From: Myxococcota bacterium
GTDB taxonomy: Bacteria > Myxococcota_A > UBA9160 > UBA6930
NCBI GenBank assembly: GCA_965223415.1
Contig: OZ245002.1
Location: 4,192,001-4,256,000, forward strand
Direction: 5' to 3'
DNA length: 64,000 bases
Below, piece by piece: positions 35,352 through 54,756 of the stretch. Each line of letters opens with the position of its first letter. The first letter of the stretch is position 1. Position numbers and translations under genes: made by a program. The notes beneath the pieces were generated by a model. The model was given only the letters and a program-made list of their open reading frames with translations, had not been told where the DNA came from and made no database searches.

Positions 35352-37259
35352 CTAGGCGGGGAGGATTCGTGCGCCCGCTACCCGGCGGATGCGTCGCCGG
35401 GCTCGCAGCGGCAGGTGTCCGAGCGAGACGGCGAGCCAGTCGTGGGGAAAGGTCACCTCGTCGAAGAGGCGGCGGAGAACGTCTGCTTCGTGAAAGGCGC
35501 CCTGGAAGCGCCACCAGGCCTTGCGCTCGATCTTCACCGCGATCAGGTACTGCGGGTGTTCCGCGAGGTGCTTCAGCTCGCGGCGCACGAGGTAGGCGCG
35601 CGTGATGCCGCCCGCCTCGCGCAGCTGGCTCACCAGGCGCTCGACGATCGGGTTCCCCAGCTCGTGGGGCGCGAAGCGCGTTTGCGCCCCGATGGACTCG
35701 CGCTCGGCGGCGGCCTCGTCGAGGGATTCCTGCTGCTGTAGGAGGTCGACGTGGATGGCGTCGGCCCGGGAGCCCTCGCCGGTCTCGCGCCACCACTGCT
35801 GCTGCAGAGCCGTGAACGCCGGCCCGTGGACCGGGTCGTTCTGGGCGGCGCGCTCCGCCCAGCCGAGGCAAGCCGCGTCGCCGTCGTCGTAGAGGAGCGT
35901 CGCGAGCCAGAGGCAGGCGTCGGCATGGTCCCCGTGGCGGGCCAGGAAGTCCTCGAGGGCGCCGCGACCCGCCTCAGGGCCCTCGCGCTGGGCGATCAGG
36001 CCCACGTGCTCCCACTCCTCCTCCACCTCGAGCGGCGGCCCGGACCCGGCGGCCCGACGGGCGAGCTCGCTGGCGCGCTCGTGGGCGGCCGCGGCTTGCC
36101 TACGCGCCTCCTCCCAGGTCTCGTCCATCTCCTTCCTCGCCTCGGCGTCACCGGTGGCGACCAGGGCGGAGGGATCCGCTGCGAGCTGTTCGATGGCGTT
36201 GGGACCGGCGGTGGCGGCGAGCAGCGCCAGAGCGCGGTCCACCGCGGCTTCGGGCTCCGCGTTCCGATCGACGATCCGGAGCTCGCGGAGGCGATCGAAC
36301 AGGGTCGGATGGGTGTCCTCCAGGTCCGTCGACTCGCCATAGGCGGCGCGCAGCGCTCGCCGCACGAGCGGCCCGTCCTGGGGCTGGCTCCGCAGGAACG
36401 CCACGGCGCGGGTCATCGCGTCCGCCGGCGGCTCCGGGTCCATCGCCGTGGTGCGGGCGAACTCCTCGACGAACCGGGTCTCGAAGCCGGTCGCGCCGAG
36501 CTGGATGCGCACCAGGGCCGCCCCGACGGCTTCCCTTCCGACCGTCTCCGCCGCATGGGCGTCCGCCTCGAACTCCTGGCGCCGTCCGTGCACCGACATG
36601 GCCGCGGCGAGTCGGGCGCCGAACAGCAGGTCGAAGGGCACCAGCAGGAGCCCCGGCAGCCCGGCGTGGCGCAGGGCGTTCCAGGACTCGCCGAAGCGGT
36701 AGAGGGAGGGGCCCCAATGGCCGTGCCGTTTCGCGAAGTGGGCGAGCTCGTGGGCGACGATCGCCCGGGCGGTGCCGAGCGGGACGACGGCCAGGAGGGG
36801 AAGGCCCAGCACGAGGTGATGCCGCGCGAAGCCCGCGAGACCGAAGAGCGGGCGCTGGGAGGCGGCCGCGTTGAACTGGCCGTCGAGCCACACCGAGCTC
36901 AGCTCGCCGACGCCCATCCTGCGCCGCAGGTCGTCGAGCAGCTCGAAGAGCCCCGGTGCATCTTCCGGCGCGAGCCGGTGGCCCCCCGGGCCTTGGACCT
37001 TCGAGACCAGCCCGACCGCCGCCGAGAAGAGGCCCAGCACCGAGAAGATGCCCACGAGGGCCAGGGCGCCCGAGCCCCCGCCCGCGGCGAAGGTGGCCAC
37101 GACCCACGCGGCGACCCCGGCGAGCAGCGCCAGCACACCGGCGAAGTAGATCAGCGCCCCGCCCACCAGGAGCCCCAGGCGGCGCCGGAAAGCGGCCGGC
37201 GCGTGGACCGAGAGCTGGGTGTACTGCTCCACCAGGCCGTGGAATCGGATGCGGCTCAC
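35352..37259 (-). CDS. M48-family membrane metallopeptidase with helical/TPR-like C-terminal extension
   Basis: FNAAA, AHELAH, RRQEFEAD, THPTL; N-terminal TM helices. Confidence 0.88.
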   Translation of the reverse strand: MSRIRFHGLVEQYTQLSVHAPAAFRRRLGLLVGGALIYFAGVLALLAGVAAWVVATFAAGGGSGALALVGIFSVLGLFSAAVGLVSKVQGPGGHRLAPEDAPGLFELLDDLRRRMGVGELSSVWLDGQFNAAASQRPLFGLAGFARHHLVLGLPLLAVVPLGTARAIVAHELAHFAKRHGHWGPSLYRFGESWNALRHAGLPGLLLVPFDLLFGARLAAAMSVHGRRQEFEADAHAAETVGREAVGAALVRIQLGATGFETRFVEEFARTTAMDPEPPADAMTRAVAFLRSQPQDGPLVRRALRAAYGESTDLEDTHPTLFDRLRELRIVDRNAEPEAAVDRALALLAATAGPNAIEQLAADPSALVATGDAEARKEMDETWEEARRQAAAAHERASELARRAAGSGPPLEVEEEWEHVGLIAQREGPEAGRGALEDFLARHGDHADACLWLATLLYDDGDAACLGWAERAAQNDPVHGPAFTALQQQWWRETGEGSRADAIHVDLLQQQESLDEAAAERESIGAQTRFAPHELGNPIVERLVSQLREAGGITRAYLVRRELKHLAEHPQYLIAVKIERKAWWRFQGAFHEADVLRRLFDEVTFPHDWLAVSLGHLPLRARRRIRRVAGARILPA

Positions 37260-37409
37260 CGGCAACCTCCCAAGGGCGCCCATCGGCCGCCCGGGGCCTC
37301 TTCGAGAGCCCCGGGGCGCCCCGCGTCGAGATGACGCCGGCGTTGCGGTGGGGCCGCAGCCGGGCGAGGCTGGCGCCTCCGGAGCGCAAGGAACAGGAAG
37401 GAGCATGGG

Positions 37410-38219
37410 ATGGAGGACTTCGAAGGCCGGATCGCCGTGGTCACCGGCGGCGCCAGCGGCATCGGGCGGGGCATCGCCGAGGCGCTCGCCGCCGAAGGGG
37501 CCCACGTCGTCGTGGCCGACATCGACGAGGCGAGGGCGGGGGACACCGCCGAGGGCCTTCGCGGGCGCGGCGTGCGGAGCTTCGCCGTCCGAACCGACGT
37601 GCGCGACACCGCTTCCGTCGACGATCTCGCCGCCGCGACGCTGAAGGAGTTCGATGGCGTCGACCTCCTCGTCAACAACGCCGGCGTCTACCTCGGCGGC
37701 GAGATGCGCGATGTCACCGAGGACGACTGGCGCTTTGTCCTGGGCGTGAACCTGGACGGCGTGTTCCGGGTCGGACAGACCTTCTCGCGAATCCTCCGCG
37801 AGCAGGGCCGCGGCGGCCACGTGGTGAACACGGCCTCGGTGGGCGGCTTCGTCGCCCACGGCGCCGGGCTCGCCTACGGCGTCAGCAAGTTCGGCGTCGT
37901 GGCGTACAGCGAGGCAATGCGGGCGGACCTCGAGCCCGAGGGGATCGGCGTCTCGACCCTTTGTCCGGGGCCGGTGGCGACCAACCTTCCCGCCTCGGAT
38001 CGGCTGCGCGGTGCCCAGGAGGCGGCCGGCGGCTTCTCCGAGGCCCTCTCTCCCTTCATTCGCGAAGGCCTCTCACCGGAGGAGGTGGGGCCGATCGTGC
38101 TGCGCGGTATCCGCGCCAATCTGCCCTACATCTTCACCGACGACAGCCTGCGCGAGCTCTTCGCCCAGCGCTTCCAGACCATCCTGGCCGGCTTCGACCA
38201 GATCACGCCGCCCGCCTAG
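37410..38219 (+). CDS. SDR family oxidoreductase
   Basis: TGGASGIG, NNAG, NTAS, YGVSK, LCPG. Confidence 0.92.
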   Translation: MEDFEGRIAVVTGGASGIGRGIAEALAAEGAHVVVADIDEARAGDTAEGLRGRGVRSFAVRTDVRDTASVDDLAAATLKEFDGVDLLVNNAGVYLGGEMRDVTEDDWRFVLGVNLDGVFRVGQTFSRILREQGRGGHVVNTASVGGFVAHGAGLAYGVSKFGVVAYSEAMRADLEPEGIGVSTLCPGPVATNLPASDRLRGAQEAAGGFSEALSPFIREGLSPEEVGPIVLRGIRANLPYIFTDDSLRELFAQRFQTILAGFDQITPPA

Positions 38220-38250
38220 GCGTCGGTCGGCGCGGGAAGAGGGGATCGCG

Positions 38251-39138
38251 ATGGACATCGGGCGGGTGGGCGTGTGGAGCCGGACCGACGGCCTCTCGGC
38301 CGGCGAAGCGGCGGCCTTCGCCCGGCGCGTCGAGGCCCTGGGCTACGGCGCCCTCTGGATCCCCGACGCCTTCGGACGCGATCCCTTCGCCCATGCCGGC
38401 TGGCTCTTCGCCCACACCGAGCGCCTGGTGGTGGCGACCGGCGTGGTGAACATCCATCTCCGGGAGGCCCAAGCGACGGCCTGCGCTCAGCGTGAGCTGC
38501 ACGACCAGTCAGGCGGGAGGTTCCTTCTCGGTCTGGGCGTGTCCCACGGCACCGTCGTGGAGGCGATGTTCCGCAAGGCGTACCCGAAGCCCGTGCCGAG
38601 CATGCGCGAGTACCTGGACAAGCTCGACGCCGCGCCCTGGTGGGGTCCCGCCCTGGAGGGCGAGCCGCCCATCGTGCTGGCCGCCCTCGGGCCGCGGATG
38701 CTGGAGCTGGCCGCCGAGCGGACCTGCGGCGCCCACCCCTTTTTCGCGCCGCCCTCGAACACCGCCCGCTCCCGCGAGATCATGGGCCCCGGCCCCTGGC
38801 TGTGTCCCGAGCAGAAGCTCCTGCTCGAGACCGATCCCGAGAAGGCGCGAGCGCGCGCTCGGAAGTCGATGGCCGGGCCCCTCGGCATGCCCAACTACCG
38901 CCGGAACCTGGTTCGCGCGGGCTTCGCCGAGCACGAGCTCGACCAGTGCGGTAGCGACCCGGTCGTCGACGCCGTGGTGGCCTGGGGCGACGTGGACGCT
39001 CTCGTCCGCCGCGTCCAGGAGCACCTGCACGCGGGCGCCTCCCATGTCTGCATCCAGCCCCTGTCCGTGGACGATCCGGCCCGACCCGACGTGGAGCTGC
39101 TCGAGAAGCTCGCGCCGCGTCTGTGCGGAGGCGGTTAG
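38251..39138 (+). CDS. LLM-class, putatively F420-dependent oxidoreductase
   Basis: GYGALW, VATGVVNI, LGLGVSH, LAALGPRML, GAHP, NYRRN. Confidence 0.85.
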   Translation: MDIGRVGVWSRTDGLSAGEAAAFARRVEALGYGALWIPDAFGRDPFAHAGWLFAHTERLVVATGVVNIHLREAQATACAQRELHDQSGGRFLLGLGVSHGTVVEAMFRKAYPKPVPSMREYLDKLDAAPWWGPALEGEPPIVLAALGPRMLELAAERTCGAHPFFAPPSNTARSREIMGPGPWLCPEQKLLLETDPEKARARARKSMAGPLGMPNYRRNLVRAGFAEHELDQCGSDPVVDAVVAWGDVDALVRRVQEHLHAGASHVCIQPLSVDDPARPDVELLEKLAPRLCGGG

Positions 39139-40436
39139 GCGGCCGGTCGCACCGGCAGCCGATGGATCGCGGACACGTGCAGGTTCGGCACCCGCTCCGG
39201 CGGCCCGGCGGCCTCGAAGCGGTGCAGGATCGGGATGAGCGCCCGGAGCGCCGCCCGCAGCTCCCAGCGCGCCAGGTTCGCGCCGAGACAGAAGTGGGCC
39301 CCGAAGCCGCCGAAGGCCAGGTGGTGGTTCGGCCAGCGGGTGACGTCGAAACGGTAGGGATCCGGGAAGACGGTCTCGTCGCGGTTGGCGGACGGGTACC
39401 ACATGCCCACGTCTTCGCCGGCGCGGATGCGCGTGTCGGCGATCTCGATGTCGCGCACTGCGGTGCGGGCGAACTGGACCACCGGCGACGTCCAGCGCAG
39501 GATCTCCTCGGCGGCGGTCGCCACCAGGTCCGGGTTCCCGCACAGCAGGTCGCGCTGCGCCGGGTGCTCCAGCAGCGCGGAGACCCCGCCGCTGATCGCG
39601 TTCTGGGTGGTCTCGTTGCCCGCCGCCAGGATCACGAACAGGAAGCCCTGGAGCTGCTGCTCGGTCAGCGGCTTGCCGTCGACCCGCCCGTGCACGATCA
39701 CGCTCGAGAGGTCGTCGCCTCCGGGGCCCCGCGCCCGCCGATCCCGGGCGAGCTCCACCATGTAGTCGGTGATCTCTCCGTAGGCCCGGGCCACGCCCTG
39801 GTTGCGCTCCTCGCCCGGCTCGAAGAAGCCCGGCTCCGGCGCGCCGATGAGCACGTTGGTGAGCTGTTTCAGTCGCATCCAGTCGCCGGCGGGCAGGCCC
39901 ATCATCTCGCCGATGGCGGCGAGGGGGAGCTTCTGGGCGAAGCTCCGGACGAAGTCGCAGAGCTCACCCTCCTCGGCCGCTCGCTCGAGCTCCGCGGCGA
40001 ACTCGTCGGCGAACTTCCGCGCCAGATCGTCGAAGTGCCCCTCGAGCTTGCGCAGGGCCGCGGGGGTGAAGCGCCGCGCCACCACGAGCCGGAACTCGCG
40101 GTGGCGCGGGTCGTCCATGTAGATGAAGTCCGGCGGTTCCTTCGGGTCCCAGCCGTGGGCCTCGGTCCGCAGGCGCATGGAGGTCTCCATGCGCGCGTCC
40201 TCTTCGCGGGTCATGAGGCGCAAGCGCCGGCTGTTCACGAAGACGTCGGACCGGCGCGAGACCTCGAGCACGTCCGCGTGGCGGGTGATCGCCCAGAATG
40301 GCGCCATCTCTTCCCGCTCGTACCAGAACACCGGGGCCTCCCGGCGCAGCAGGTCCCACTCCCGCCAGGGGTAGCCCTCGCGCACGTAACGGTCGGTGCT
40401 GTGGATGTCGAGGGTCGCAAGCGTCGGCTCGGGCAT
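39135..40436 (-). CDS. Cytochrome P450 (CYP124/125/142-like)
   Basis: AGNETT, EEILRW, SANRDE, FGGFGAHFCLG heme motif. Confidence 0.93.
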   Translation of the reverse strand: MPEPTLATLDIHSTDRYVREGYPWREWDLLRREAPVFWYEREEMAPFWAITRHADVLEVSRRSDVFVNSRRLRLMTREEDARMETSMRLRTEAHGWDPKEPPDFIYMDDPRHREFRLVVARRFTPAALRKLEGHFDDLARKFADEFAAELERAAEEGELCDFVRSFAQKLPLAAIGEMMGLPAGDWMRLKQLTNVLIGAPEPGFFEPGEERNQGVARAYGEITDYMVELARDRRARGPGGDDLSSVIVHGRVDGKPLTEQQLQGFLFVILAAGNETTQNAISGGVSALLEHPAQRDLLCGNPDLVATAAEEILRWTSPVVQFARTAVRDIEIADTRIRAGEDVGMWYPSANRDETVFPDPYRFDVTRWPNHHLAFGGFGAHFCLGANLARWELRAALRALIPILHRFEAAGPPERVPNLHVSAIHRLPVRPAA

Positions 40437-40500
40437 GGGGCCACTGTGGGCTAGAATGCCCGCTTCGTCCAGAAGGCCGGGCTCGGCCGGGAGGCATCTC

Positions 40501-41382
40501 ATGGCGACCGCTCTCGCATCCGACGTGCTCGAGGTCACGCGTCTCACGGGCTCGCTCGGCGCCGAGGTCCGGGGAATCGCCCTGGGCCAGGCCGGTCCGG
40601 AGGAGGCCGAGGCGCTGAAGGAGCTGATGGCGGAGCATCTGGTCCTCTTCTTCCCGGACCAGCACCTCACGCCCGACGCCCACATTGCCTTCGGGCGCCT
40701 CTTCGGGGAGCTCGAGGCCCACCCGAACCTCCACCTCGACGCCGAGCGGCCCGAGTTCTTCGAGCTCCACGCCACCGGCGGCGCCGGCGCCATCGCCGAC
40801 GAATGGCACAGCGATCTCACCTGTCAGGAGGAGCCGTCGGTGATGGCGATCCTGCAAATGGTGAAGTGCCCGCCCTTCGGCGGTGACACGCTCTGGGCGA
40901 ACGCCTACAAGGCCTACGACGAGCTCTCGCCGCCGATGAAGGAGCTCTGCGAGGGGCTCACCGCTCTCCACGACGCCCATCCCCACGGCAAGCCAGAGAA
41001 CATGGCGATCCATCCCGTCGTGCGAACCCACCCGGTGACCGGCCGCAAGTCCCTCTTCGTGAACGAGCACTTCACCCGCCGCATCGTCGAGATGGGCCAC
41101 CAGGAGAGCGAGGCCCTGCTCGGGTTCCTGACCGGTTGGATCACGAGCCCGAACTTCACGGTCCGCTACCACTGGAGCGAAGGCACGATCGCGATGTGGG
41201 ACAACCGCTGCACGCAGCACTGCGTGCTGAACGACTTCGAGGGTGAGCGGGTCATCCAGCGCGTCACCGTGATGGGCGATCGGCCCGAGGCCGCTGCTCC
41301 GCTGCGCTGGGAACCCTTCGTCAAGCCCTTCAGCGCCGCGAGCCGGCACGACCGCCAGCTCAAGACGTTCCTGCACCGCTAG
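40501..41382 (+). CDS. TauD/TfdA alpha-ketoglutarate dioxygenase
   Basis: WHSD, GGDT, HPVVRTHP, WDNRCTQH. Confidence 0.92.
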   Translation: MATALASDVLEVTRLTGSLGAEVRGIALGQAGPEEAEALKELMAEHLVLFFPDQHLTPDAHIAFGRLFGELEAHPNLHLDAERPEFFELHATGGAGAIADEWHSDLTCQEEPSVMAILQMVKCPPFGGDTLWANAYKAYDELSPPMKELCEGLTALHDAHPHGKPENMAIHPVVRTHPVTGRKSLFVNEHFTRRIVEMGHQESEALLGFLTGWITSPNFTVRYHWSEGTIAMWDNRCTQHCVLNDFEGERVIQRVTVMGDRPEAAAPLRWEPFVKPFSAASRHDRQLKTFLHR

Positions 41383-43495
41383 GCGGATCGCCCTGCGGGC
41401 GCGCCAGGCCCTGGGGCGTGAGCTCGGCCTCGGCGGGAACCGCTTCGCCCGCCAGGATCGCCTCCACGCGATCGAGCAGCTCCGGCAGCGGGTAGGGGCG
41501 CGCCGGGTGGCCGGTGAAGGGCTCGGTCGTCACGAACGGCTGGGTCAGGAAGCGGAGGAGCCTCTGGGCGCGCGCGGTCTCCTCCGGATCCGCGTCGGCG
41601 ATCGTCGCCGGATCCGGAAGCGCGAGGTCCGGGTCGCACCGCTCGTAGTCGATCAGGAGCGCCCGGGCTCGCTCGGACACGCGCGCATGTCGCGGGCTCG
41701 CGAACGCTCCAGGCTCGCTGCGGACGTGGCTGCCGACCGGATCCACGGCCGGATAGAGGCCGCGCCGGGCGCGTCGCCGGTCGAGGGTGACCCGCGCGTC
41801 CCAGGGAGCGACGAGGGCCGAGCGGCCATCCTCCTCCTGGTTCTCGAACGGGGAGACGACGAGCGTGGTCATGGATCCAGCCGGCGCCGGCGTCCGCAAG
41901 CGGGTGAAGCTCGCCTCAGCGTCGATCTCGAATCCCGTCTGCGTGAGCAGGACGACGAGCACGTCCCGCCCCTCTTTCCGAAGCTCCTCGGCGTGGTCGA
42001 TGCCTTCCGCGAAGGTCTTGCGACGGGCGTCCGGCGGGTTCTCCCGGGGCGCGAGGTGCACGGCCACGTTCCGGGCGAGTCCGGCCTCCCGTAGCTCCGC
42101 CCGCAGGTCGTCCGGGTCGAAGGGGCCCTGGGCGATCCCGGTCCATAGCGCCGCCCCGTCGGGCCGGTTCGCCCAGCGATGGCTCAGCTCGTTCAGCAGC
42201 ACGACCATGCCGCAGCCGGCGCGGAAGGGGACCCGGACGAGGGCGCCGCGGGCGAGGGGCACGAACAGGTCCACCGCGCGGATGCCCGTCGCGGAGGTTC
42301 GCGCTTCCCCGGCCGGAACGGCCAGGGGACGGGGTGCCTCGTCCTCCCGCTCCGGAAGCCGCGCCGCGACCTGCGCGTGCCCCTTCGCCAGTGCCCAGGC
42401 TCGCGCTGTGCGTCCGGCCCGGTCGGGGAGGTCCGAGCGGGCGCCGTGCTCGAGCAGGAGGGCGACGAGATCCTCGCGTCCCCGCATGGCCGCCACGTGG
42501 ATGGGAGCGTTGCCCGTCGCCGCCCGCCGGTTCGGGTCGGCGCCGGCCTCGAGGAGCCGGCGTACGATCTCCATCTCCTCGAGGAGGACGGCGGCCCAGA
42601 GCGGGGATTCTCCGGTCGCGCATCCGCACCGCCCGTCGGCGACGGCGCCGCGAGCGAGGAGGAGCTCGGTCATGTCGAGGTCTCCCCGTTCGACGGCAGT
42701 GACGAGCGGCGTGGCCCGGGAGGCGAAGGGGAGCACGCCTTCGTAGACGAGCTCCGGATCCCAGCGCTGCTCCGTCTCCACGAGCTCCGGCATGCGCGTG
42801 AGCATGCGCGCTACCTCGTCGTGGTCGCCCGCGCGAAGCGCGAGAAAGAACTGCACGGCAGCGCTGAAACGCGGGTCCCGGGAGGGGCGCAGGGGTGTGG
42901 GCTCGGCCATGGGGTTCTCCTCCGATCCCGGCGCACCGGGCTCGCCGGGCAATGGGTAGGCCTCCCGGAGCCGCGCCCTGGCCCTTCGCAGGCGCTTCTT
43001 CAGGCTCGGCAACGAGAGCTCGAGGAACGATGCGAGGGCCGGCTGCGGCTCGCCGGCGAAGTAGTGGAGGACGAGGGGGAGGCGTTCGGACCGGGGCAGG
43101 GCCTCGACGGCACGCCGGAGCTGCTCGGCCTCGCGCCGGTCCTCGAGAGCGGCGTCGGGCAGGGGGCCGCTCGCCGTTCTCTCGCGGGGCTCCCGAGTGG
43201 CCACCTCGAGTCGTCCGCGGCGCGTCACCCGGTCGCAGTGCTTGAGCACGATGCGCCGGAGCCAACCCGGGAAGGCCGCCGGCTCCTCGAGCTGCCGAAG
43301 GGCGACGTGGGCGTTCGCGAAGCTCTCCTGGGCCACGTCCCGCGCGAGCTCGATGTCACCCAGCCAGCCGAAGGCCGTCCCCACGACCATGTCCTGGAAC
43401 GCGACGACCAGCTCGCCGAAGGCGGCCAGCTCCCCGGCCTGGGCGCGCTCGACCTGGGCGACGTAGGGCTGGGGGCTTGCGTCGGGTTCCTGCAT
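41360..43495 (-). CDS. ECF sigma factor fused to ankyrin repeats and a degenerate F1-ATPase beta-like domain
   Basis: Sigma2 (AFGELV..DVAQE..FPGWL), sigma4 (LP..ER..LHYF..KKRLRRAR), ankyrin (TPLVTA, SPLWAA, GADPN, APIHVAA), F1-beta motifs (TGIRAVDLF, YPAVDP, FLTQPF, FTG). Confidence 0.88.
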   Translation of the reverse strand: MQEPDASPQPYVAQVERAQAGELAAFGELVVAFQDMVVGTAFGWLGDIELARDVAQESFANAHVALRQLEEPAAFPGWLRRIVLKHCDRVTRRGRLEVATREPRERTASGPLPDAALEDRREAEQLRRAVEALPRSERLPLVLHYFAGEPQPALASFLELSLPSLKKRLRRARARLREAYPLPGEPGAPGSEENPMAEPTPLRPSRDPRFSAAVQFFLALRAGDHDEVARMLTRMPELVETEQRWDPELVYEGVLPFASRATPLVTAVERGDLDMTELLLARGAVADGRCGCATGESPLWAAVLLEEMEIVRRLLEAGADPNRRAATGNAPIHVAAMRGREDLVALLLEHGARSDLPDRAGRTARAWALAKGHAQVAARLPEREDEAPRPLAVPAGEARTSATGIRAVDLFVPLARGALVRVPFRAGCGMVVLLNELSHRWANRPDGAALWTGIAQGPFDPDDLRAELREAGLARNVAVHLAPRENPPDARRKTFAEGIDHAEELRKEGRDVLVVLLTQTGFEIDAEASFTRLRTPAPAGSMTTLVVSPFENQEEDGRSALVAPWDARVTLDRRRARRGLYPAVDPVGSHVRSEPGAFASPRHARVSERARALLIDYERCDPDLALPDPATIADADPEETARAQRLLRFLTQPFVTTEPFTGHPARPYPLPELLDRVEAILAGEAVPAEAELTPQGLARPQGDPPSGAGTS

Positions 43496-43655
43496 GACGT
43501 GGGAGAGGACCCGGTCGAGGGCCGGGCGGATACCCCCGAGAACGGCCCCGGCTTCCTTCGGCCGCCTGCAGAGGGTAGGCGAGCGGCGCCCGGGTGGGGA
43601 CCCCGCCCGCGCGGCACCAGGGCGGCTGGCATCCACCATCGCCTAGACTGCCCGG

Positions 43656-44492
43656 ATGGCCATCCTCGACGACAAGGTGGCGATCGTCACCGGCGCAGCC
43701 TCGGGCATCGGCAAGGCGACGGCGCAGCTCCTGGCCAAGGAGGGCGCTGCGGTCCTGGTGGCCGATCTCGACGAGGCCGGCGCCAAGACGGTGGCCGGCG
43801 AGATCGCCGACGCCGGCGGCCGCGCCCTGGGTCACGCCGTCGACGTCTCGGACGAGGCGGCGGTGCGGGGGATGATCGACGCCGCCGTGGCGGCCTTCGG
43901 CGGCCTCGACGTCCTGCACAACAACGCGGCGGCCATCGGCGCGGCGAGCCCCGGCCGGGACATGGACGTCGCCGCGATCGACGTCGAGGTCTGGGATCGC
44001 ACGATGGCCGTCAACCTGCGCGGCGTCATGCTCGGCTGCAAGCACGCGATCCCCCGGATGCTCGAGCGCGGCGGGGGGGCCATCGTCAACACCTCGTCGG
44101 GCTCCTCCCAGCGCGGCGACCTGACGATCCCCTCCTACGCGGTCTCGAAAGGCGGAGTCGACACGCTGACCCTCTACGTCGCCGCCCAGTACGGCAAGCG
44201 CGGCATCCGCTGCAACGCCATCGCCCCGGGCTTGATCCTGACCCATCCGGTGGAGCAGTTTGGTGGTGCCGAGTACGTCGGCATGCTGGAGGAGCACCAC
44301 CTGACCCCCCGGGTCGGACAGCCGGAAGACATCGCCCAGGCCGTCCTCTTCCTCGTTTCCGACGCCGCCGGGTTCATCACCGGCCAGATCGTCAACGTCG
44401 ACGGTGGCATCCTGAGCCATGCGCCGCCGGTCGCGGACATTCGGCGCATGGCGGCGATGGCCGCCTGGGCGAAGCAGGCTCCGAAGGGGTAG
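43656..44492 (+). CDS. SDR family oxidoreductase
   Basis: TGAASGIG, HNNAA, YAVSK, CNAIAPG, ITGQ..VDGG. Confidence 0.92.
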   Translation: MAILDDKVAIVTGAASGIGKATAQLLAKEGAAVLVADLDEAGAKTVAGEIADAGGRALGHAVDVSDEAAVRGMIDAAVAAFGGLDVLHNNAAAIGAASPGRDMDVAAIDVEVWDRTMAVNLRGVMLGCKHAIPRMLERGGGAIVNTSSGSSQRGDLTIPSYAVSKGGVDTLTLYVAAQYGKRGIRCNAIAPGLILTHPVEQFGGAEYVGMLEEHHLTPRVGQPEDIAQAVLFLVSDAAGFITGQIVNVDGGILSHAPPVADIRRMAAMAAWAKQAPKG

Positions 44493-44606
44493 GGCGCGCC
44501 CCGGGGCCCGCTGGCGGCGGACGGGATTCGTGGCTACCACGGGCTGGGCGCGGCCGTCCCGCGCTTCCCGACCCTACCCGACGCGAACCGAACTGGAGAC
44601 GCACCC

Positions 44607-44903
44607 ATGCCTGCCTACCTGATCGTGAACTACAAGGTCGAGAACCCGGAGCTCTACGGCGAGTATGCCGCCGCAGCCGGGCCCGCCATGGGGATCGGCG
44701 ACCAGTGCCAGCTGCTGGCGTTCGACGCCAAGTCGGAGCAGATCGAAGGCGAGGACGCCGGCCACCAGACCGTGCTCCTCAAGTTCGACTCCAAGGAGAA
44801 GGCCCGCGAGGTCTACGAGTCCGGTGACTACCAGGCGGTGGTCGGCAAGCGGCTCGAGGCCACCTCCAGCCACTTCGCCATCCTGGTCGACGGAATGGCC
44901 TGA
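44607..44903 (+). CDS. DUF1330-family protein
   Basis: MPAYLI, IEG, LKFDS..A..YES.DYQ. Confidence 0.85.
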   Translation: MPAYLIVNYKVENPELYGEYAAAAGPAMGIGDQCQLLAFDAKSEQIEGEDAGHQTVLLKFDSKEKAREVYESGDYQAVVGKRLEATSSHFAILVDGMA

Positions 44904-44904
44904 A

Positions 44905-45702
44905 GTGCGGCTCGAAGGCAAGGCGGCCATCGTCACCGGCTCCGCTCGCGGCACCGGCGAGGCCATCGCGCGGCTCTTCGTGGAAGAGGGCGCCCGGGTG
45001 ATGGTGTCGGACGTGCTTCACGACCGCGGCGAGGCGCTGGCCAAGCATCTCGGCGAGGCGGCGATCTACCAGCCGCTGGACGTGTCCCAGGCCCGCGACT
45101 GGGACACGGCGGTCGCCCGTGCGCGGGACGTGTTCGGAGGCATCGACGTGCTGGTGAACAATGCGGCGGTGCTGGTCATCCGGGGCATCGAGGACACGCA
45201 GCCCGAGGAGCTCGAGCGGCTCTTCCGCGTGAACCAGCTCGGCCCCTTCCTCGGCATCCGTGCCGTGGCCGGGCCGATGCGCGAGCGCGGCGGCGGGGCG
45301 ATCGTGAACGTCGCCTCCTCCGATGGCGTGAAGGGGATGAACGGCGTCGTCGGCTACGCCTCCACGAAGTGGGCCCTGCGCGGCATCACCAAGGCCGCCG
45401 CCATGGAGCTCGCGCGCGATCGCATCCGCGTCAACGCGGTGTGCCCCGAGGCCGGCAACCACGAGATGTCCGCCCCCTTCCTGCCCGCGGGCATCGACTC
45501 GCGTATGGCTGCCGAGCACAACGTGGGGCAGCTGCTGCGCCCGCCGGAGGGCTACGACCTCGACGACCACGTGCGCGACGTGGCGCGCGCCGTGCTGTTC
45601 CTGGCCTCGGACGACTGCCCCACTGCGACCGCCGCCGATCTCGTCGTCGACGGTGGCCTCACGGCCGGCTACATCCAGCGCGGGCTGCCCGGCTCCGATT
45701 GA
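44905..45702 (+). CDS. SDR, 3alpha/20beta-hydroxysteroid dehydrogenase-like
   Basis: TGSARGTG, NNAA, YASTKWALRG, RVNAVCP. Confidence 0.88.
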   Translation: MRLEGKAAIVTGSARGTGEAIARLFVEEGARVMVSDVLHDRGEALAKHLGEAAIYQPLDVSQARDWDTAVARARDVFGGIDVLVNNAAVLVIRGIEDTQPEELERLFRVNQLGPFLGIRAVAGPMRERGGGAIVNVASSDGVKGMNGVVGYASTKWALRGITKAAAMELARDRIRVNAVCPEAGNHEMSAPFLPAGIDSRMAAEHNVGQLLRPPEGYDLDDHVRDVARAVLFLASDDCPTATAADLVVDGGLTAGYIQRGLPGSD

Positions 45703-45703
45703 C

Positions 45704-46165
45704 TCAGCCGGGGGGCTCGCACACGAAGATCGGGATGTCCCGATCCGTGCGTTCCCGGTACTCGGCGTAGGGTGCGTAGTGCTGGTCGCAGAGGGGCCAG
45801 AGCGCGGGCTTCTCCTCGGCGCCCGCCAGCCGCGCCCGCAGCTTCATCTTGCGCCCCCGGTGGTTCACCTCGATGTCAGGGTGCTTCACCAGGTTGCCGT
45901 ACCACACCGGATTCTTCGGCGCTCCGCCCTGGGAGGCCACGAGGAGAACGCCCTCCCCGTAGGGCACGTACATCAGCGGGATCGTGATGCGCTTCCCGCT
46001 CCGGGCACCGGTCATCGTGACGAAGCACACCTCGTCGCCGCCGAGGGTGTTGAGGAAGCGTCCGCCGAAGAGGCGGTGCAGGAAGACGTGGGTGCGGGTC
46101 ATCGTCTTCAGCACCCAGCGCGGCGGCGGCGAGCCGGATCCGGAAGAGGGGGCTTCGCTGGCCAT
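45704..46165 (-). CDS. Deazaflavin (F420)-dependent nitroreductase, Ddn/DUF385 family
   Basis: TGARSG, VASQGGAPKNPVWYGNL, YRERTDRDIPIF. Confidence 0.9.
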   Translation of the reverse strand: MASEAPSSGSGSPPPRWVLKTMTRTHVFLHRLFGGRFLNTLGGDEVCFVTMTGARSGKRITIPLMYVPYGEGVLLVASQGGAPKNPVWYGNLVKHPDIEVNHRGRKMKLRARLAGAEEKPALWPLCDQHYAPYAEYRERTDRDIPIFVCEPPG

Positions 46166-46217
46166 GGGAATCCTCCGAGGGGTAGAGTGACGGCGCTCCC
46201 AGGAGGCTACCGCACAG

Positions 46218-46907
46218 GTGAACCCCTTCCCGGCGTTGCGGGGCGATGCCGCGCTGGCCGTCTACCTCGATCTCAAGAGCCCCTACGCGTTCATCGCCTT
46301 GGAGCCCACCCGCGCCATGGCCCGGGCGGCAGGCGTCGCGATCGACTGGCGCCCCTTTACCCTCGACATCCCCAGCTACCTGGGCTCGGCGCGCCTCGAC
46401 GGGAAGGGCCGCGTCGCCGAGAGCCGGCGCACGCCCCAGCAGTGGACCGGCGTGCGCTACGCCTACCGGGACGCGCGTCGCTACGCGAGCCTGCGTGGCA
46501 AGACGCTGCGGGGCACGGTCAAAATCTGGGACTCGAGCCTGGCGGGCATCGCCATGCTGTGGGCCAAGCAGCAGGGCCCCGAGCGCTTCGACCGCTTCGT
46601 CGACGAAGCCTACGCCCGCTTCTGGCGGCGTGAGCTCGACATCGAGGACGCGGGCGTGCTCGAGGCGCTGCTGGCGGAGACCGGCGCCGACGCGGCGGGC
46701 TTCCACGCCTTCGCCGACGGCCCCGGCCGCGCGGCCCACGACGTCCTGAACCAGGCCGCCTTCGACGCCGGCGTCTTCGGTGTCCCCACGTACCTCGTCG
46801 GAGACGAGATGTGGTTCGGCCGCGAGCACTTGCCGCGGGTCGCCTGGCTGCTGGGCGGTGCCGTCGGTCCTGCGCCCGAAGCGGCGAACCGGAGCTTCGA
46901 CCCGTGA
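46218..46907 (+). CDS. HCCA isomerase / kappa-GST (DsbA-like) protein
   Basis: DLKSPYAF, GVFGVPTY, FGREHL. Confidence 0.85.
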   Translation: MNPFPALRGDAALAVYLDLKSPYAFIALEPTRAMARAAGVAIDWRPFTLDIPSYLGSARLDGKGRVAESRRTPQQWTGVRYAYRDARRYASLRGKTLRGTVKIWDSSLAGIAMLWAKQQGPERFDRFVDEAYARFWRRELDIEDAGVLEALLAETGADAAGFHAFADGPGRAAHDVLNQAAFDAGVFGVPTYLVGDEMWFGREHLPRVAWLLGGAVGPAPEAANRSFDP

Positions 46908-47524
46908 GCCGTCTCACCGTCGCGCTGGACCTCCGGCACCCGCTCGCCTACCTGGCCCTCCAGCCCACCGTCGCACTCGCCCGGGAGCTCTCTCTCGACG
47001 TCGACTGGCTGCCGCTCTCGGTGCCAACGCTGCGTCCGCCGAGTGCGCGCCAGGCGGGCGACGACCGGGGCGTTCGCCACCGGCGCTACCGCGCCCAGGC
47101 CATCGCCCGCGAGATCGAGGCCTACGGCGCGGTCCAGGGGCTCGTGCTGCGCGAGCCGTACCGCAGCGCGGAGGTCGATGCGGCGATTCTCGGCTGGCTG
47201 TGGGTCCGGGAGCACCAGCCCGGCCGGCTGCCCGCCTTCCTGGGAGCCCTGTTCGCCGGCTATTGGTCCCTCGATCTCGACGCGGCCCGGGTCGACGCGG
47301 TCGCGGGCCTGGTCGAGACCGTCTCGGCGGATGCCACCGCCTTCCTCGAATGGGCGGTCGGGGAGGGACCGGAGCGTGCCCGCGCAGTGGCTGCCGAGCT
47401 GGAGGAGCGGGGCCTCTTCCAGGTGCCTGCCTACGCCGTGGAAGACGAGGTGTTCTACGGTCGGCAGCACCTGCCCATGATTCGCTGGATCCTCGAGGGA
47501 CGGTCCGGTCCCGGACCCATCTAG
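46904..47524 (+). CDS. Second, divergent HCCA isomerase/DsbA-like protein
   Basis: DLRHPLAY, GLFQVPAY, YGRQHLPMIRW; GTGA coupling. Confidence 0.75.
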   Translation: MSRLTVALDLRHPLAYLALQPTVALARELSLDVDWLPLSVPTLRPPSARQAGDDRGVRHRRYRAQAIAREIEAYGAVQGLVLREPYRSAEVDAAILGWLWVREHQPGRLPAFLGALFAGYWSLDLDAARVDAVAGLVETVSADATAFLEWAVGEGPERARAVAAELEERGLFQVPAYAVEDEVFYGRQHLPMIRWILEGRSGPGPI

Positions 47525-47545
47525 GATCCGGGAGGAGGTGGCCCC

Positions 47546-48016
47546 ATGGCAGACCAGGACAGAGCCGCGGTCCGGTTCCCGCCGCCGTTCGTTCCCCTGA
47601 TTGCGCTGGCGCTGGGCGTGGCGCTCCACCGGTGGGTGTGGCCGGCGCCCCTGCCGGTGAAGGGGCTGCTGCGCTGGGGCGCGACCGCGCTGCTCCTGGG
47701 CGGTGGACTGGCACTGATGGGTGCGGCCGCGGGCCTCTTCCGACGCACCGGTCAGGATCCGAAGCCGTGGGTGAGCACGCCGGAGATCATCGAATCCGGC
47801 GTCTACGGATTCACGCGCAATCCCATGTACGTGGCGATGGGTCTGCTGCAGGCGGGACTCGGCGTCGCCCTCGCCAACGGCTGGGTCGTCGGGCTGGTCC
47901 CGGTCACCTGCGCCGTCATCCAGCTCATCGCGATCCGCCATGAGGAGGCCTACCTCGAGCGGAAGTTCGGCAGCACCTACACCGCCTACAAGGCGCGCGT
48001 CCGGCGTTGGCTCTGA
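47546..48016 (+). CDS. Isoprenylcysteine carboxyl methyltransferase / PEMT family protein
   Basis: FPPP, TRNPMY, EEAYL..KFG..Y..YKARVRRW. Confidence 0.88.
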   Translation: MADQDRAAVRFPPPFVPLIALALGVALHRWVWPAPLPVKGLLRWGATALLLGGGLALMGAAAGLFRRTGQDPKPWVSTPEIIESGVYGFTRNPMYVAMGLLQAGLGVALANGWVVGLVPVTCAVIQLIAIRHEEAYLERKFGSTYTAYKARVRRWL

Positions 48017-48312
48017 CCGTGGCGGCGCCGTGCGAGGGCAACGGCGGCGCCTAGCAGCGGCAGGGTGATGGCGACTGCCCGCTGGGATGGCGGGACGATC
48101 CAGAAGGGGCTGCGAGGGTCGTCCGTCAGGAACGCGAGCCGGCCGCAGGGCGTGGCCTCCGCGCCGGTGAGTCCGGGCCAATCGAGGGTGGTGCAGGTGC
48201 CGTCGTAGGTCCGCAGCGCGGCCCCGACGTCGGCGAGGAGCAGCGCCAGCACGACCAGGAGGCCGGCGGCGAAGCCCTGGGCGGCCGTCCGGAGAGAGGG
48301 GGGAGATTCCAT
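47986..48312 (-). CDS. Hypothetical two-TM membrane protein
   Basis: Two hydrophobic helices flanking a Cys-containing loop. Confidence 0.5.
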   Translation of the reverse strand: MESPPSLRTAAQGFAAGLLVVLALLLADVGAALRTYDGTCTTLDWPGLTGAEATPCGRLAFLTDDPRSPFWIVPPSQRAVAITLPLLGAAVALARRRHGQSQRRTRAL

Positions 48313-48418
48313 GGGGCCCCAGAGAGCAAGCGGCGTGCCGCCGGAGGGGCGCTCTCGGCGGCGCCTGGGTGGCGCGGGCGTTCACCGGATGGCCCCGCCA
48401 TGCACGCGGTGACCGGGC

Positions 48419-49954
48419 TCAGTTGATCCCCTTCTCCATCCCCTCCCAGTAGGGCTTGCGCAGCTTGTACTTCTGCAGCTTGCCGGTGGCGGTGCGCGCC
48501 AGCTCGTCCCGGAACTCGATGGAGGTCGGGCACTTGTAGTGGGCGATCTTCTCCCGGCAGTGGTCGATCAGCGTCTTCTCGTCGGCCTCGCTGCCCGGTG
48601 CCAGCACCACCAGCGCCTTCACGGTCTCTCCCCACTTCTCGTGGGGCACGCCGATCACCGCCACCTCGGCGACGGCGGGGTGGGCGAAGAGCGCGTCCTC
48701 CACCTCGATGGAGGAGACGTTCTCGCCGCCGGAGATGATCACGTCCTTCTTGCGGTCCGTGATGGCGAAATAGCCGTCGTCGTCCAGGTAGCCCCCGTCG
48801 CCGCTGTGGAACCAGCCGTCCCGGATGGCCTCGCCGGTGGCGTCGGGCTGGTCCCAGTAGCCCTCCAGCACGTGGTTGGTGCGGGCCAGGAGCTCGCCCT
48901 CGTCGTCCACGCGCACCCGCACGCCGAGGGCCGGGGCGCCGGCGCGGCCCAGCTTCTGGGCGCGCTCCGCGGGGCTGAGGCCGTCCCACTCGGCGCGGGT
49001 GCGGTTCATCGTCAGGAGAGGCGCCGTCTCGGTGAGGCCGTAGATCTGGATGAACTCCCAGCCGAGCTCGGTCTCCACCCGCTCGATCGTTCGCGTCGGC
49101 GGCGGAGCGCCGGCCACGACGATGCGCACACGGCCGGAGCCGGGGATGGGCCCGTCCCACTCGGCGGCCGCGTCGAGGATCGCAGCGACCACCGCGGGCG
49201 CACCGCACAGCAAGGTGACGCCATGCTCCTCGACGCGGCGCAGGATCTCGGGCCCGTCCACCTTGCGCAGCACGACCTGTCTGGCGCCCATGCCGACCAG
49301 GGCATAGGGCATGCCCCAGCCGTTGCAGTGGAACTGGGGCAGGGTGTGGAGGTAGACGTCCCGGTCGTTGACCCCGCTCTGCCAGCCGAAGACCGCCGCG
49401 TTCAGCCACAGGCTCCGATGGGTCTGCTCCACACCCTTGGGCCGGGCGGTCGTGCCGGAGGTGTAGTTGATCACCGCGGTATGGTCCTCGTCCGGCTCCC
49501 ACGGCTGGGGCTCGGCGCCCGGGGCGAGCATGCGGGCATCGGACTCCTCTCCGAGCACGAAGCGGTGCTTGCACCCGACGCCCGCGAGGGTCTCGTCGAG
49601 CTCCGGATCGACGAGCAGCACGTCGGCGCCGCAGTGGCCGACGATGTACTCCACCTCCTCCCGCGAGAGCCGGAAGTTGATCGGCACGAAGATGCGGCCG
49701 TGCCCGCTCACACCCCAGAAGCAGGTGAGCAGGCGGGACGCGTTCTGGGAGACCATGGCCACGCGCCCGCCGACCGGCAGGCCCAGGCGGTCGAGGCCCG
49801 CGCCCATGGCCTGGGAGAGGGCGCCCAGCTCCCGGAAGGTCGTCTCGCCCAGGGAGGGGGCCGGCTGGTCCGGCTCGTCGACGAAGGCCACCCGATCCGG
49901 GTAGACGGCGAGGGCGCGGTCGAGGTGGTCGCGAATGGTCAGCGGGACCCGCAT
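48419..49954 (-). CDS. AMP-binding acyl-CoA synthetase
   Basis: YTSGTTARPKG, YGLTE, FHSGD, DRKKD, TGKLQK. Confidence 0.93.
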   Translation of the reverse strand: MRVPLTIRDHLDRALAVYPDRVAFVDEPDQPAPSLGETTFRELGALSQAMGAGLDRLGLPVGGRVAMVSQNASRLLTCFWGVSGHGRIFVPINFRLSREEVEYIVGHCGADVLLVDPELDETLAGVGCKHRFVLGEESDARMLAPGAEPQPWEPDEDHTAVINYTSGTTARPKGVEQTHRSLWLNAAVFGWQSGVNDRDVYLHTLPQFHCNGWGMPYALVGMGARQVVLRKVDGPEILRRVEEHGVTLLCGAPAVVAAILDAAAEWDGPIPGSGRVRIVVAGAPPPTRTIERVETELGWEFIQIYGLTETAPLLTMNRTRAEWDGLSPAERAQKLGRAGAPALGVRVRVDDEGELLARTNHVLEGYWDQPDATGEAIRDGWFHSGDGGYLDDDGYFAITDRKKDVIISGGENVSSIEVEDALFAHPAVAEVAVIGVPHEKWGETVKALVVLAPGSEADEKTLIDHCREKIAHYKCPTSIEFRDELARTATGKLQKYKLRKPYWEGMEKGIN

Positions 49955-53603: not shown

Positions 53604-53705
53604 CGCTGCGGCCTCCTCCCCTTTCCGATTCGCGCCAGGGCGAGCCGGAGGCCCATTAGGCCACAGCTCCGGGCCCGGGTCCATACCGGTTCCTATGCTG
53701 CGGCC

Positions 53706-53963
53706 ATGGCTGCACGCCTCGCTCACGTGTTCGTTCTCGGGCTCGTCGCCGCGACCCTCGGCTGCGCATCCACGGTTCCGCTCGAGCAGCATCAGGCCCT
53801 GGAGGCGCGGCTGGGCGAGCTCCAGGAGGGGCAGGAGCTGCTCCGCGGCGAGCTCGGCGAGCTGGAGGAGCGCAACGAGCAGCTCACGGCGATGGTCGCG
53901 GCCCAGCGGATGATCATCCGCGACCTCCGCTGCCGCCCTCAGCTCACGATCGAGGCCGAGTAG
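53706..53963 (+). CDS. Small coiled-coil lipoprotein
   Basis: Lipobox TLGC followed by a heptad coiled coil; TATGCT 6 nt before ATG. Confidence 0.7.
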   Translation: MAARLAHVFVLGLVAATLGCASTVPLEQHQALEARLGELQEGQELLRGELGELEERNEQLTAMVAAQRMIIRDLRCRPQLTIEAE

Positions 53964-54756
53964 CGGGGTCGGGCCGGCCGGGCTCCAGGTGGACGCGCTG
54001 GACCCGCATCATGCGGGGCTCGCGGCCGGCGTTGTCCGAGGTGGCGTGGAGGATCCACGGGTGACACAAGATCACGTCCCCCGCCTCGGCGCACAGCTCG
54101 GCGACCCGGACCGGGAGGCCGCCGATGACGCGCTCGCTCCCGAGGAAGCGCCCCACGCGATCGTCGCCGTCGCTCTCGGTGGAGAGCGCCCGCAGCCATG
54201 GATCGCTCGCGAGGAAGGCGAGCCGGGTCACCTTCATCTTTTCGCCGGGCCGCGGCGCGCGCCGCTCGAGGAAGCGCTCCATCAGGCGGTGGGAGCCCTC
54301 GACCACCAGCGTGCCTCCTCCTCGCGGCGGGACGTCGGCCAGGAAGCTGAAGAGCAGGGTGCCGGCCAGCGGGCGCTGGGGGAGCTGGAAGCCGAAGTCG
54401 GTGTGCCAGACCCGATGGGGAACGTCCCAGCCGCCCTCGGAGGCGGACGGAAACGAGATCAGGAACTGGCCCCAATCCCTGGGCACGTGCCAGCGGCCGG
54501 CGCCGAGGAGCTGGTCGAGGCTCGTGACCAGGCGCTCGCCGCCGATCGGATCGAAGACGGCCTGTCGCTTCAGATCCTGCATCTTCCACACCGCACCGGG
54601 CGTCCAGGTGTCCGGTGCGTCGCGCAGGACGCCCCGTCGGCCGAGGGTCTTCCACACCCGCTCCTCCATGGCCCGGGCTTCCCCCTTCGAGAAGACGCCG
54701 GAGAGGCGGACGAATCCGCGCTCCTCGAAGGCCTGGCACTGCTCCCGGCTCAGCAT
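53944..54756 (-). CDS. Phytanoyl-CoA dioxygenase (PhyH) family protein
   Basis: FEERGFV, WHTD, GGT..GSH, AGDV, LH...N...R. Confidence 0.85.
   Translation of the reverse strand: MLSREQCQAFEERGFVRLSGVFSKGEARAMEERVWKTLGRRGVLRDAPDTWTPGAVWKMQDLKRQAVFDPIGGERLVTSLDQLLGAGRWHVPRDWGQFLISFPSASEGGWDVPHRVWHTDFGFQLPQRPLAGTLLFSFLADVPPRGGGTLVVEGSHRLMERFLERRAPRPGEKMKVTRLAFLASDPWLRALSTESDGDDRVGRFLGSERVIGGLPVRVAELCAEAGDVILCHPWILHATSDNAGREPRMMRVQRVHLEPGRPDPATRPRS

Follow-up and report, generated by a model that had tools for sequence, protein, structure and literature searches.

We analysed a 64,000 bp stretch of contig OZ245002.1 from a Myxococcota bacterium (assembly GCA_965223415.1, positions 4,192,001 to 4,256,000; hereafter the window, which means this whole stretch). 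An earlier note, made from the sequence alone, had singled out one gene in it as a fusion of an extracytoplasmic function (ECF) sigma factor with ankyrin repeats and a domain related to the beta subunit of F1-ATPase. The gene is an open frame of 711 amino acids on the minus strand (41360-43495). The three-domain architecture is real: Pfam and NCBIfam profiles and a phmmer search of the PDB identify ECF sigma regions 2 and 4, ankyrin repeats and an F1-beta-like C-terminus, and the four Pfam families Sigma70_r2, Sigma70_r4_2, Ank and ATP-synt_ab all match above their cut-offs. The motifs on which the first reading had been based (TGIRAVDLFVPL, ENPPDAR, AEELRKEGRDVL, GLYPAVDP, RAQRLLRFLTQPF..EPFTG, FRAGCGMV, DVLVVLL and CGC) are all present in the translation. 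The protein has no transmembrane segment (maximum hydropathy 1.43). The features of the gene and its two neighbours are listed in Table 1.

The longest open reading frame of the fusion gene is 759 amino acids and runs from an upstream ATG at 43639. Pfam was scored on this longer frame, and residue numbers are given here in the 711-residue numbering. A conserved promoter element, described below, sits within the extension of the 759-residue frame, so ATG 43639 cannot be the start, and the start at 43495 that had been chosen before is correct. The 17 codons that follow ATG 43495 include no ATG, GTG or TTG.

Table 1. Features of the fusion gene and its immediate neighbours in the window. Residues are those of the 711-residue protein; fractions refer to the 79 aligned fusion proteins described in the text.
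Feature	Residues	Position	Strand	Evidence or remark
TauD-family gene, convergent		40396-41382	+	Neighbour of fusion gene
CDS, 711 aa + stop: ECF sigma + ankyrin + pseudo-F1-beta (P0001)		41360..43495	-	Translation, Pfam, NCBIfam
Pseudo-F1-beta: nucleotide-binding remnant and C-terminal helical domain, no N-terminal barrel	400-690	41426..42298	-	PDB phmmer, Pfam
Walker B remnant DVLVVLL, followed by 20-residue deletion relative to F1 beta	511-517	41945..41965	-	Alignment
Degenerate P-loop FRAGCGMV (replaces GGAGVGKT)	424-431	42203..42226	-	Alignment with 16 true beta subunits
Ankyrin domain, about 5 repeats (our own reading)	~211-385	42341..42865	-	Pfam Ank, Ank_2, Ank_3, Ank_4 and Ank_5 above cut-offs
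C290-G-C292, loop between ankyrin repeats 2 and 3	290-292	42620-42628	-	C290 in 58/79, C292 in 57/79 members
Sigma region 4	124-176	42968..43126	-	Pfam Sigma70_r4_2, 35.7 bits (cut-off 25.7)
Sigma region 2	29-93	43217..43411	-	Pfam Sigma70_r2, 26.5 bits (cut-off 24)
ECF-type promoter-like element GTATCC-N15-GGGTC		43508..43533	-	Single window match, same site in related loci
-10-like GGGTC		43508-43512	-	Part of promoter-like element
-35-like GTATCC		43528-43533	-	Part of promoter-like element
SDR gene, divergent		43656-44492	+	Neighbour of fusion gene

The sigma core is that of a normal ECF (group 4) sigma factor with regions 2 and 4 only. The NCBIfam profile for ECF sigma factors (TIGR02937, sigma70-ECF) matches the N-terminus of the fusion with 56.3 bits against a cut-off of 42.9, and the other sigma regions (1.1 and 3) have no Pfam match in the protein. 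The nearest solved relatives of this part are an AlgU-type sigma-H (6in7_B, E 4e-13), then SigE, SigW and RpoE. The ankyrin repeats that follow are matched most strongly by Ank_2 (E 5.4e-18, 65.8 bits, cut-off 27.3) and by Ank, which covers three stretches (E 5.6e-16, 58.2 bits, cut-off 21.1). The protein also has a weak match to NCBIfam NF041931 (MzaA, a sigma-70-family protein of the MZA anti-phage system; 47.5 bits against a cut-off of 800), of which the best-scoring stretch lies within the ankyrin repeats, and the matches from PADLOC were all of the ankyrin type.

The C-terminal part is clearly related to F1 beta. Pfam ATP-synt_ab (PF00006) matches residues 404-516 with E 2.5e-14 (53.9 bits, cut-off 29.5). 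A phmmer search with residues 400-711 found 58 PDB chains at E <= 1e-10, the best being 2qe7_D (E 1.2e-31); 57 of these chains are named as F1 or ATP synthase beta or as F1-ATPase, and the remaining one is the beta subunit of a G1-ATPase. The nucleotide-binding and C-terminal domains are homologous to and colinear with those of F1 beta, both the atpD type and the 'alternate' beta of N-ATPases, at about 30% identity, and they share with it the motifs TGIKxxDL, PPxxR, (Y)PAVDP and RFLTQPFxxxExFTG. The NCBIfam profiles of these two types match at 5.9e-28 (atpD, 97.9 bits) and 1e-32 (TIGR03305, alternate F1 beta, 113.5 bits), each far under its equivalog cut-off (462.85 and 752, respectively). Because the atpD score is so far below the cut-off, the fusion protein falls outside the F1-beta enzyme family. 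The scores are mixed as to a canonical or an N-ATPase origin: TIGR03305 scores above atpD for the window protein, and atpD above TIGR03305 for protein P0105. A search of the Atlas with the beta part gave generic ATP-synt_ab clusters only.

We aligned 79 near-full-length members of the fusion family with 16 true beta subunits. Few members retain any one of the catalytic residues of F1 beta: the Walker A Lys is present in 7/79, the Walker A Thr in 3/79, the catalytic Glu in 6/79, the Arg adjacent to it in 14/79 and the Walker B Asp in 10/79, and the complete set of five is found in none (0/79). The Lys has mostly been replaced by Met, Gln, Arg or Leu and the Thr mostly by Val, Met or Leu (Met and Val, respectively, in the window protein). 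The loop that carries the catalytic Glu and Arg reads W-T-G-F-x-Q-x-P-F-D in the family and W-T-G-I-A-Q-G-P-F-D in the window protein. Every member (79/79) lacks the stretch of 20 residues that follows Walker B in F1 beta (NIFRF...GxMP), the VPADD columns are gapped in 63-67 of the 79, and the region equivalent to DELSEED is gapped and unconserved. In the window protein, where the P-loop reads FRAGCGMV, what was once the phosphate site is predicted to be mostly hydrophobic.

Other parts of the domain have been kept. The last Gly of the P-loop is retained in 78/79 members, the Pro of YPAVDP in all 79 and the aromatic residue before this motif's PAVDP in 69. The QPF segment is retained to similar degrees (Q in 77/79, P in 72/79, F in 65/79), as is the Glu of E-x-F-T-G (73/79), and both the TGIKxxDLxAPL segment and the C-terminal domain are well conserved among the fusions. 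The aromatic and QPF segments are thus kept, as had been claimed for the single protein.

In the window protein the beta match follows the ankyrin match after only five residues, so no N-terminal barrel is left. In some distant members 57-97 further residues lie between the two parts. A remnant of the barrel in these long-linker members is unproven, and Pfam ATP-synt_ab_N matched none of the eight that were tested (0/8); in P0105 the NCBIfam FliI/SctN profiles align about 50 residues upstream of the nucleotide-binding domain. Unlike F1 beta, then, the domain of the window protein lacks the barrel, the VPADD loop, the 20-residue segment and the residues of catalysis, and it is not encoded in an atp operon. 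Taken together, the alignments indicate that the pseudo-beta domain descends from F1 beta and is predicted to be catalytically dead, both in the window protein and across the family. Ancestry and loss of catalysis had both been proposed in the earlier note, and both stand.

The same architecture occurs in many other genomes. All three domains are present in 85 of the best 150 representatives at 50% identity, 64 being near full length (579-778 aa), and the family extends beyond these 150. The other representatives listed are 7 proteins with ankyrin and beta parts only, 3 with sigma and ankyrin parts only and 55 giant ankyrin proteins. A collection at 90% identity added 15 further proteins with the fusion architecture, of which one bears just the name 'sigma-70 family RNA polymerase sigma factor [Myxococcota bacterium]' and a second one is called 'F-type H+-transporting ATPase subunit beta'. 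A scan of a genome collection, with patterns specific to the subfamily of the window protein, gave 22 loci, all in metagenome-assembled genomes (MAGs): 20 from Gammaproteobacteria (including several Pseudomonadales and Ca. Azotimanducaceae), one from an unclassified member of the Pseudomonadota and one from Myxococcota. In two Atlas clusters of proteins of about 700 aa with Ank and Sigma70_r4_2 the commonest known phylum is Chloroflexota. In a plasmid collection, none of 115 records covers >=80% of the fusion protein.

The reading frame is intact in 21/21 loci examined; locus L022, which looks disrupted, was left out. Its copy of the fusion (8001-9962) matches in tblastn with E 1e-57, compared with about 1e-135 or lower elsewhere, and no long open reading frame was called there. 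For the ten closest pairs of loci, dN/dS (Nei-Gojobori) was 0.06-0.15 for the sigma part, 0.08-0.18 for the ankyrin part and 0.12-0.20 for the pseudo-beta part. All three domains are under purifying selection. The pairwise divergences of the three domains correlate with one another (Mantel r 0.53, 0.68 and 0.75; p 0.001), which argues that the fusion has been inherited as a unit. Three proteins consist of the pseudo-beta domain alone, P0184 (288 aa), P0187 (376 aa) and P0197 (325 aa), and are nested among the sigma fusions in the tree. Truncated gene calls or split genes could explain them, or they could truly exist as stand-alone proteins; P0187 still has the Walker A Lys, along with part of an N-terminal domain.

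The degenerate beta domain is also found in a second, large family of proteins of about 355 aa, in which it follows an XRE-like helix-turn-helix (HTH) domain. There were 1175 matches to this family at E <= 1e-10 among the scored candidates, and the best 120 were 57-75% identical. The N-terminal 65 residues are nearly invariant across the family, and the HTH part matches Pfam HTH_31 under the cut-off (E 4.5e-4). Sources include cultured Paenibacillus species and Alicyclobacillus and MAGs of Symbiobacteriaceae and Chloroflexota, where names such as 'hypothetical protein', 'ATP synthase beta subunit C-terminal domain-containing protein' and 'helix-turn-helix domain-containing protein' are in use; for most copies the annotation is hypothetical or a fragment of ATP synthase beta. 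Examples are P0218, P0220, P0241 and P0257-P0373, and the gene at 7001-8059 (+) of locus L023. An annotated locus of this family on a plasmid of Paenibacillus cellulositrophicus had no informative context.

The beta domains of the two families are closely related. When the sigma fusions were compared with 38 HTH proteins by hhalign, they aligned over 284 columns with a probability of 100 and E 7e-51. In a joint alignment the HTH proteins have Gln in place of the Walker A Lys in 111/116 and lack the catch loop in 116/116; they retain the P-loop Gly (116/116), the aromatic residue of the PA(V/I)DP motif (110/116) and QPF...E. Four derived residues (W451, G521, D525 and D572) are common to both pseudo-beta families and absent from true beta. 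The trees place the true betas together in a single clade (support 100 and 99), with all pseudo-betas on the other side; a test of the HTH family as nested in the sigma fusions versus sister to them did not separate the two (approximately unbiased (AU) p 0.092). The two kinds of protein thus have the same degenerate beta module with a DNA-binding partner, and they differ in that an HTH replaces the ECF part, the ankyrin repeats are missing and the taxa are others. The recurrence of a dead beta domain as the half that does not bind DNA in two kinds of transcription factor gives the strongest hint that the domain serves, quite generally, for input or regulation.

Upstream of the fusion gene there is a promoter-like element whose full consensus, G-GTATCC-N15-GGGTC(T/C)T, is found at the same position in 23/23 loci (the 22 relatives and the window). 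GTATCC-N15-GGGTC matches the window once, against 0.10 matches expected from shuffled sequence. Each of the 22 related sigma loci has one match, in the same place, and there is none elsewhere in 341 kb. The spacer is 14 rather than 15 at L022. The motif was not found at the Paenibacillus locus L023. Spacing of this kind and a downstream half containing GTC fit the -35 and -10 elements of ECF promoters. In the window only 12 nt separate GGGTC from ATG 43495, so the sigma mRNA would be nearly leaderless; in the relatives, where the gaps are longer, the distance from the start of the motif to the point at which the protein match begins is 38-103 nt. No sigma-70-type promoter was matched in 41000-43800. 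We infer that GTATCC-N15-GGGTC is the gene's own, autoregulated promoter, and its use by this sigma factor is predicted. The 160-nt intergenic region between the sigma gene and the divergent short-chain dehydrogenase/reductase (SDR) gene (43496-43655) contains this ECF-type promoter as its sole recognisable element.

Neither atp genes nor a recognisable anti-sigma gene are adjacent to the fusion gene in the window, as had been stated before. Across the 23 loci no neighbouring gene is kept beyond close relatives, no atp genes lie near the fusion gene, and no same-strand downstream open reading frame of >=50 aa is conserved. Some downstream frames only seemed conserved: in one clade they shadow a GNAT gene that runs antisense to them. 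An SDR gene is found near the sigma gene in 7/23 loci (the window included), mostly directly upstream and divergent. We rejected it as a regulon member: the proteins of the window and of locus L006 are 35% identical, which is generic SDR similarity. Genes for GNAT, enoyl-CoA hydratase, ParA-like and luciferase-like proteins recur only in close kin and were likewise set aside.

These data fit the idea, put forward in the earlier note, of a 'one-component' sigma system, in that the self-promoter is conserved and there is no conserved partner gene in the 23 loci. A sigma factor with positive autoregulation needs a brake, and with no partner gene conserved the brake would most simply be the fused extension. 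In the model that we favour, the fusion is an ECF sigma factor that drives its own expression and is gated by the attached extension of about 520 residues, and we regard the chances that it is right and that it is wrong as roughly equal. The sigma factor would be cytoplasmic and its gating would take place after translation. The ankyrin repeats, a protein-binding scaffold, would grip either a partner or the sigma domains themselves. As the input module we propose the pseudo-beta domain, with a ligand or protein partner in the remodelled, largely hydrophobic and aromatic cleft of the former active site, and binding there would shift the sigma part between a closed state and one competent for RNA polymerase. 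Once released, the sigma factor would amplify its own synthesis and switch on a regulon elsewhere in the genome.

Several points weigh against this model. The gene of an anti-sigma factor can lie far from that of its sigma factor. No second copy of the promoter motif was found in the window or within +-8 kb in the 22 loci. The neighbouring genes were called by a heuristic open reading frame caller with a minimum of 90 aa (50 aa downstream of the sigma gene). Couplings between sigma region 4 and the ankyrin loop, computed as mutual information with average product correction (MI-APC), are unreliable, coming from only 79 phylogenetically structured sequences. Additionally, the extension could be required for activity rather than inhibitory, as in ECF42.

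Control by a fused C-terminal extension, in place of an anti-sigma factor, defines an established class of ECF sigma factors, as described in the parts of PMC7826278 and PMC8999054 available to us. The extensions that the same parts describe are Cys-rich, SnoaL-like, TPR, WD40-like, transmembrane or fused anti-sigma, and DUF1835 (PMC7826278, PMC8999054), and the extension is inhibitory in ECF41 and required for activity in ECF42 (PMC8999054). The present protein resembles ECF41 and ECF56 (SnoaL-like), ECF42 (TPR), ECF57 (WD40-like) and ECF238 CorE (Cys-rich) in consisting of sigma regions 2 and 4 and a long C-terminal extension. It also resembles them, as far as these portions of the two papers go, in having no adjacent cognate anti-sigma gene and an ECF-type promoter before its own gene. 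The extensions of ECF42 and ECF57 are, in the same portions, repeat-type protein-interaction domains, like the ankyrin repeats here (PMC7826278, PMC8999054). Unlike the extensions of ECF41, 42, 56, 57 and 238, the one described here has Pfam matches of the Ank type and to ATP-synt_ab only, and the stretch of about 520 aa after sigma region 4 is conserved in the 79 aligned members. Neither an ankyrin nor an ATP-synthase-like extension is among the types given in the accessible parts of PMC7826278, partial supplement included, or of PMC8999054. Literature searches for ECF or other sigma factors with ankyrin repeats, ATP synthase beta, a pseudoenzyme or a fusion of this kind gave nothing relevant (PMC8195603, in the part available, concerns other systems), and the statement that no characterised system has this architecture is consistent with this. 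The protein is apparently an ECF sigma factor with a new type of regulatory extension, and the pseudo-beta domain an apparently undescribed domain of transcription factors.

As to what the extension responds to, the cysteines offer one candidate. The conserved helix WLRRIVLKHCDRVTRR of sigma region 2 bears H86 and C87 (the C87 codon is at 43235-43237), and C87 is found in 53/79 members. C87, C290 and C292 are the only alignment columns with Cys in >=15/79 members; the three occur together in 48/79, the H-C-C-C pattern of H86, C87, C290 and C292 occurs in 40/79, and C87 and the CxC are kept in 22/22 proteins aligned from the loci and the window. C87, with H86, and C290-x-C292 might together bind zinc or form a disulphide between the domains and so clamp the ankyrin repeats onto sigma region 2, in which case oxidation or loss of metal would free the sigma factor. 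Such a switch would be compatible with the gating proposed above, as its input. In an exploratory MI-APC analysis of the 79 sequences the pair C87-C292 ranked 13 of 53,567 inter-domain pairs, and ECF control through cysteines has precedents in CorE and ECF57, as given in the part of PMC8999054 available to us. However, all three cysteines are missing in 17/79 members. The co-occurrence of the three (Fisher p 5e-7) was rejected as evidence, being inflated by shared ancestry: in a tree-aware test the association was not significant, since CxC had changed only 3 times and C87 8 times, which is too small a number of independent events. The MI-APC couplings were rejected as well, since they are dominated by column A147, probably a clade marker. 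Furthermore, H86 and C87 lie in the helix that recognises the -10 element and may be conserved for promoter recognition. We consider a thiol or metal switch unlikely.

The earlier note had favoured a nucleotide or energy sensor, in which the pseudo-beta domain binds ATP, ADP or a different adenine nucleotide without hydrolysis and couples the sigma factor to energy charge. In structures of F1 the YPAV, QPF and E-x-F-T segments line the adenine pocket, and the retention of QPF and E-x-F-T in both pseudo-beta families counts in favour of such a sensor, along with the nearly invariant P-loop Gly (78/79 fusions and 116/116 HTH proteins) and the aromatic residue of (Y/F/W)PA(V/I)DP (69/79 and 110/116). 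There are also precedents. F1 alpha and the B subunit of V/A-type ATPases are paralogues of catalytic subunits that have altered sites and do not hydrolyse ATP; they keep the fold, and some of them bind nucleotide. These subunits stay in the ATPase ring, whereas the pseudo-beta domain is part of a transcription-factor fusion without a ring-forming N-terminal domain. The retained motifs double as elements of the fold core and hinge, and their retention need not imply a ligand. Against them stand the loss of the Walker A Lys (7/79) and Thr (3/79), of the Glu (6/79) and Arg (14/79) and of the Walker B Asp (10/79), and the deletion of the post-Walker B segment in all 79. Genes of energy metabolism are not linked to the fusion gene in the window or at the 22 related loci. 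With Walker A Lys and Thr and the Glu-Arg loop replaced, and a context without energy metabolism, the claim of a nucleotide or energy sensor is not supported, and we think it improbable. If nucleotides are sensed at all, it would have to be in a reduced way, by an adenine pocket that remains although the site for phosphate and Mg has been lost.

A role in oligomerisation or as a scaffold, without sensing, is a further alternative. The pseudo-beta domain would multimerise and so aid DNA binding by the HTH proteins, or sequester or localise the sigma factor. XRE-like HTH proteins usually need a dimerising C-terminal domain, and the module stands directly behind such an HTH in a large family; FliI and Rho, relatives by fold, form rings. 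Ring formation by FliI, however, needs the N-terminal domain that is missing here, and we know of no case in which isolated F1 beta self-assembles. We judge this alternative to be quite improbable.

It had also been suggested that the domain is an F1-interacting module that docks on alpha, gamma or epsilon and reports the state or assembly of ATP synthase. Descent from F1 beta and the good conservation of TGIKxxDLxAPL and the C-terminal domain speak for such a module. The N-terminal barrel holds the alpha3-beta3 crown together, and the VPADDxTDP and DELSEED-region segments contact gamma in F1. The barrel is absent from the window protein, and the ATP-synt_ab_N search of the eight long-linker members was negative; VPADDxTDP has either been deleted or has degenerated, and in the DELSEED region the alignment has gaps and no conservation. 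Because the barrel and both gamma-contact loops are lost, interaction with F1 is disfavoured. With atp genes near none of the 23 loci, this suggestion is not supported and looks very improbable.

Finally, the explanation that the fusion is an assembly chimera, a pseudogene or a decaying fusion with a functionless extension, which the earlier note had kept in view, can be dismissed with near certainty, being refuted by the occurrence of the architecture in 85 of the best 150 representatives and at 22 independent loci, by reading frames intact in 21/21 and by the dN/dS of the pseudo-beta part.

Gating of the sigma factor by its own extension thus remains the model that we prefer. A broader reading can be put forward tentatively, and we would place no great reliance on it: the F1-beta-derived pseudo-ATPase may be a widespread, unrecognised signal-input domain of transcription factors, which has kept the adenine pocket and reads an adenine metabolite or the energy state. 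Its scope would take in ECF fusions in Gammaproteobacteria, Myxococcota and probably Chloroflexota, and HTH fusions in Paenibacillus and Chloroflexota.

ECF sigma factors make up the third major mode of signal transduction in bacteria, and of their inputs the fused extensions are the least understood. In the present case one of the most highly conserved enzymes of life appears to have been recruited, with loss of catalysis, as a regulatory module of transcription factors. The system offers a clean experimental handle, in that the self-promoter does not vary, no partner gene need be sought and the sister HTH form is found in cultured Paenibacillus. Should the module sense an adenine compound or bind a partner protein as its signal, synthetic gene switches would also gain a compact new component.

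The remaining observations concern the rest of the window, which has a G+C content of about 71% and gave no Rfam match and no tRNA gene in the tRNA scan over its 64 kb. The fusion gene lies in a run of genes of redox or xenobiotic type (35352-49954): three SDRs, a luciferase-like monooxygenase, a P450, the TauD dioxygenase, an F420H2-dependent quinone reductase, a DsbA-like protein, a DUF1330 protein and an acyl-CoA synthetase. The sigma promoter motif is absent from all of these enzyme genes. A gene for an M48 peptidase is also found in the surroundings of the fusion gene. At the start of the window a DDE transposase frame (705-2114, +) matches DDE_Tnp_1_4 with E 8.5e-29, and the first 2 kb have 64% G+C. 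Two adjacent frames of 632 and 733 aa at 50003-54008 (-) have C-terminal ABC ATPase domains, and genes for a cytochrome c and a haem-copper oxidase subunit I form a pair near the window end (61370-63502, +).

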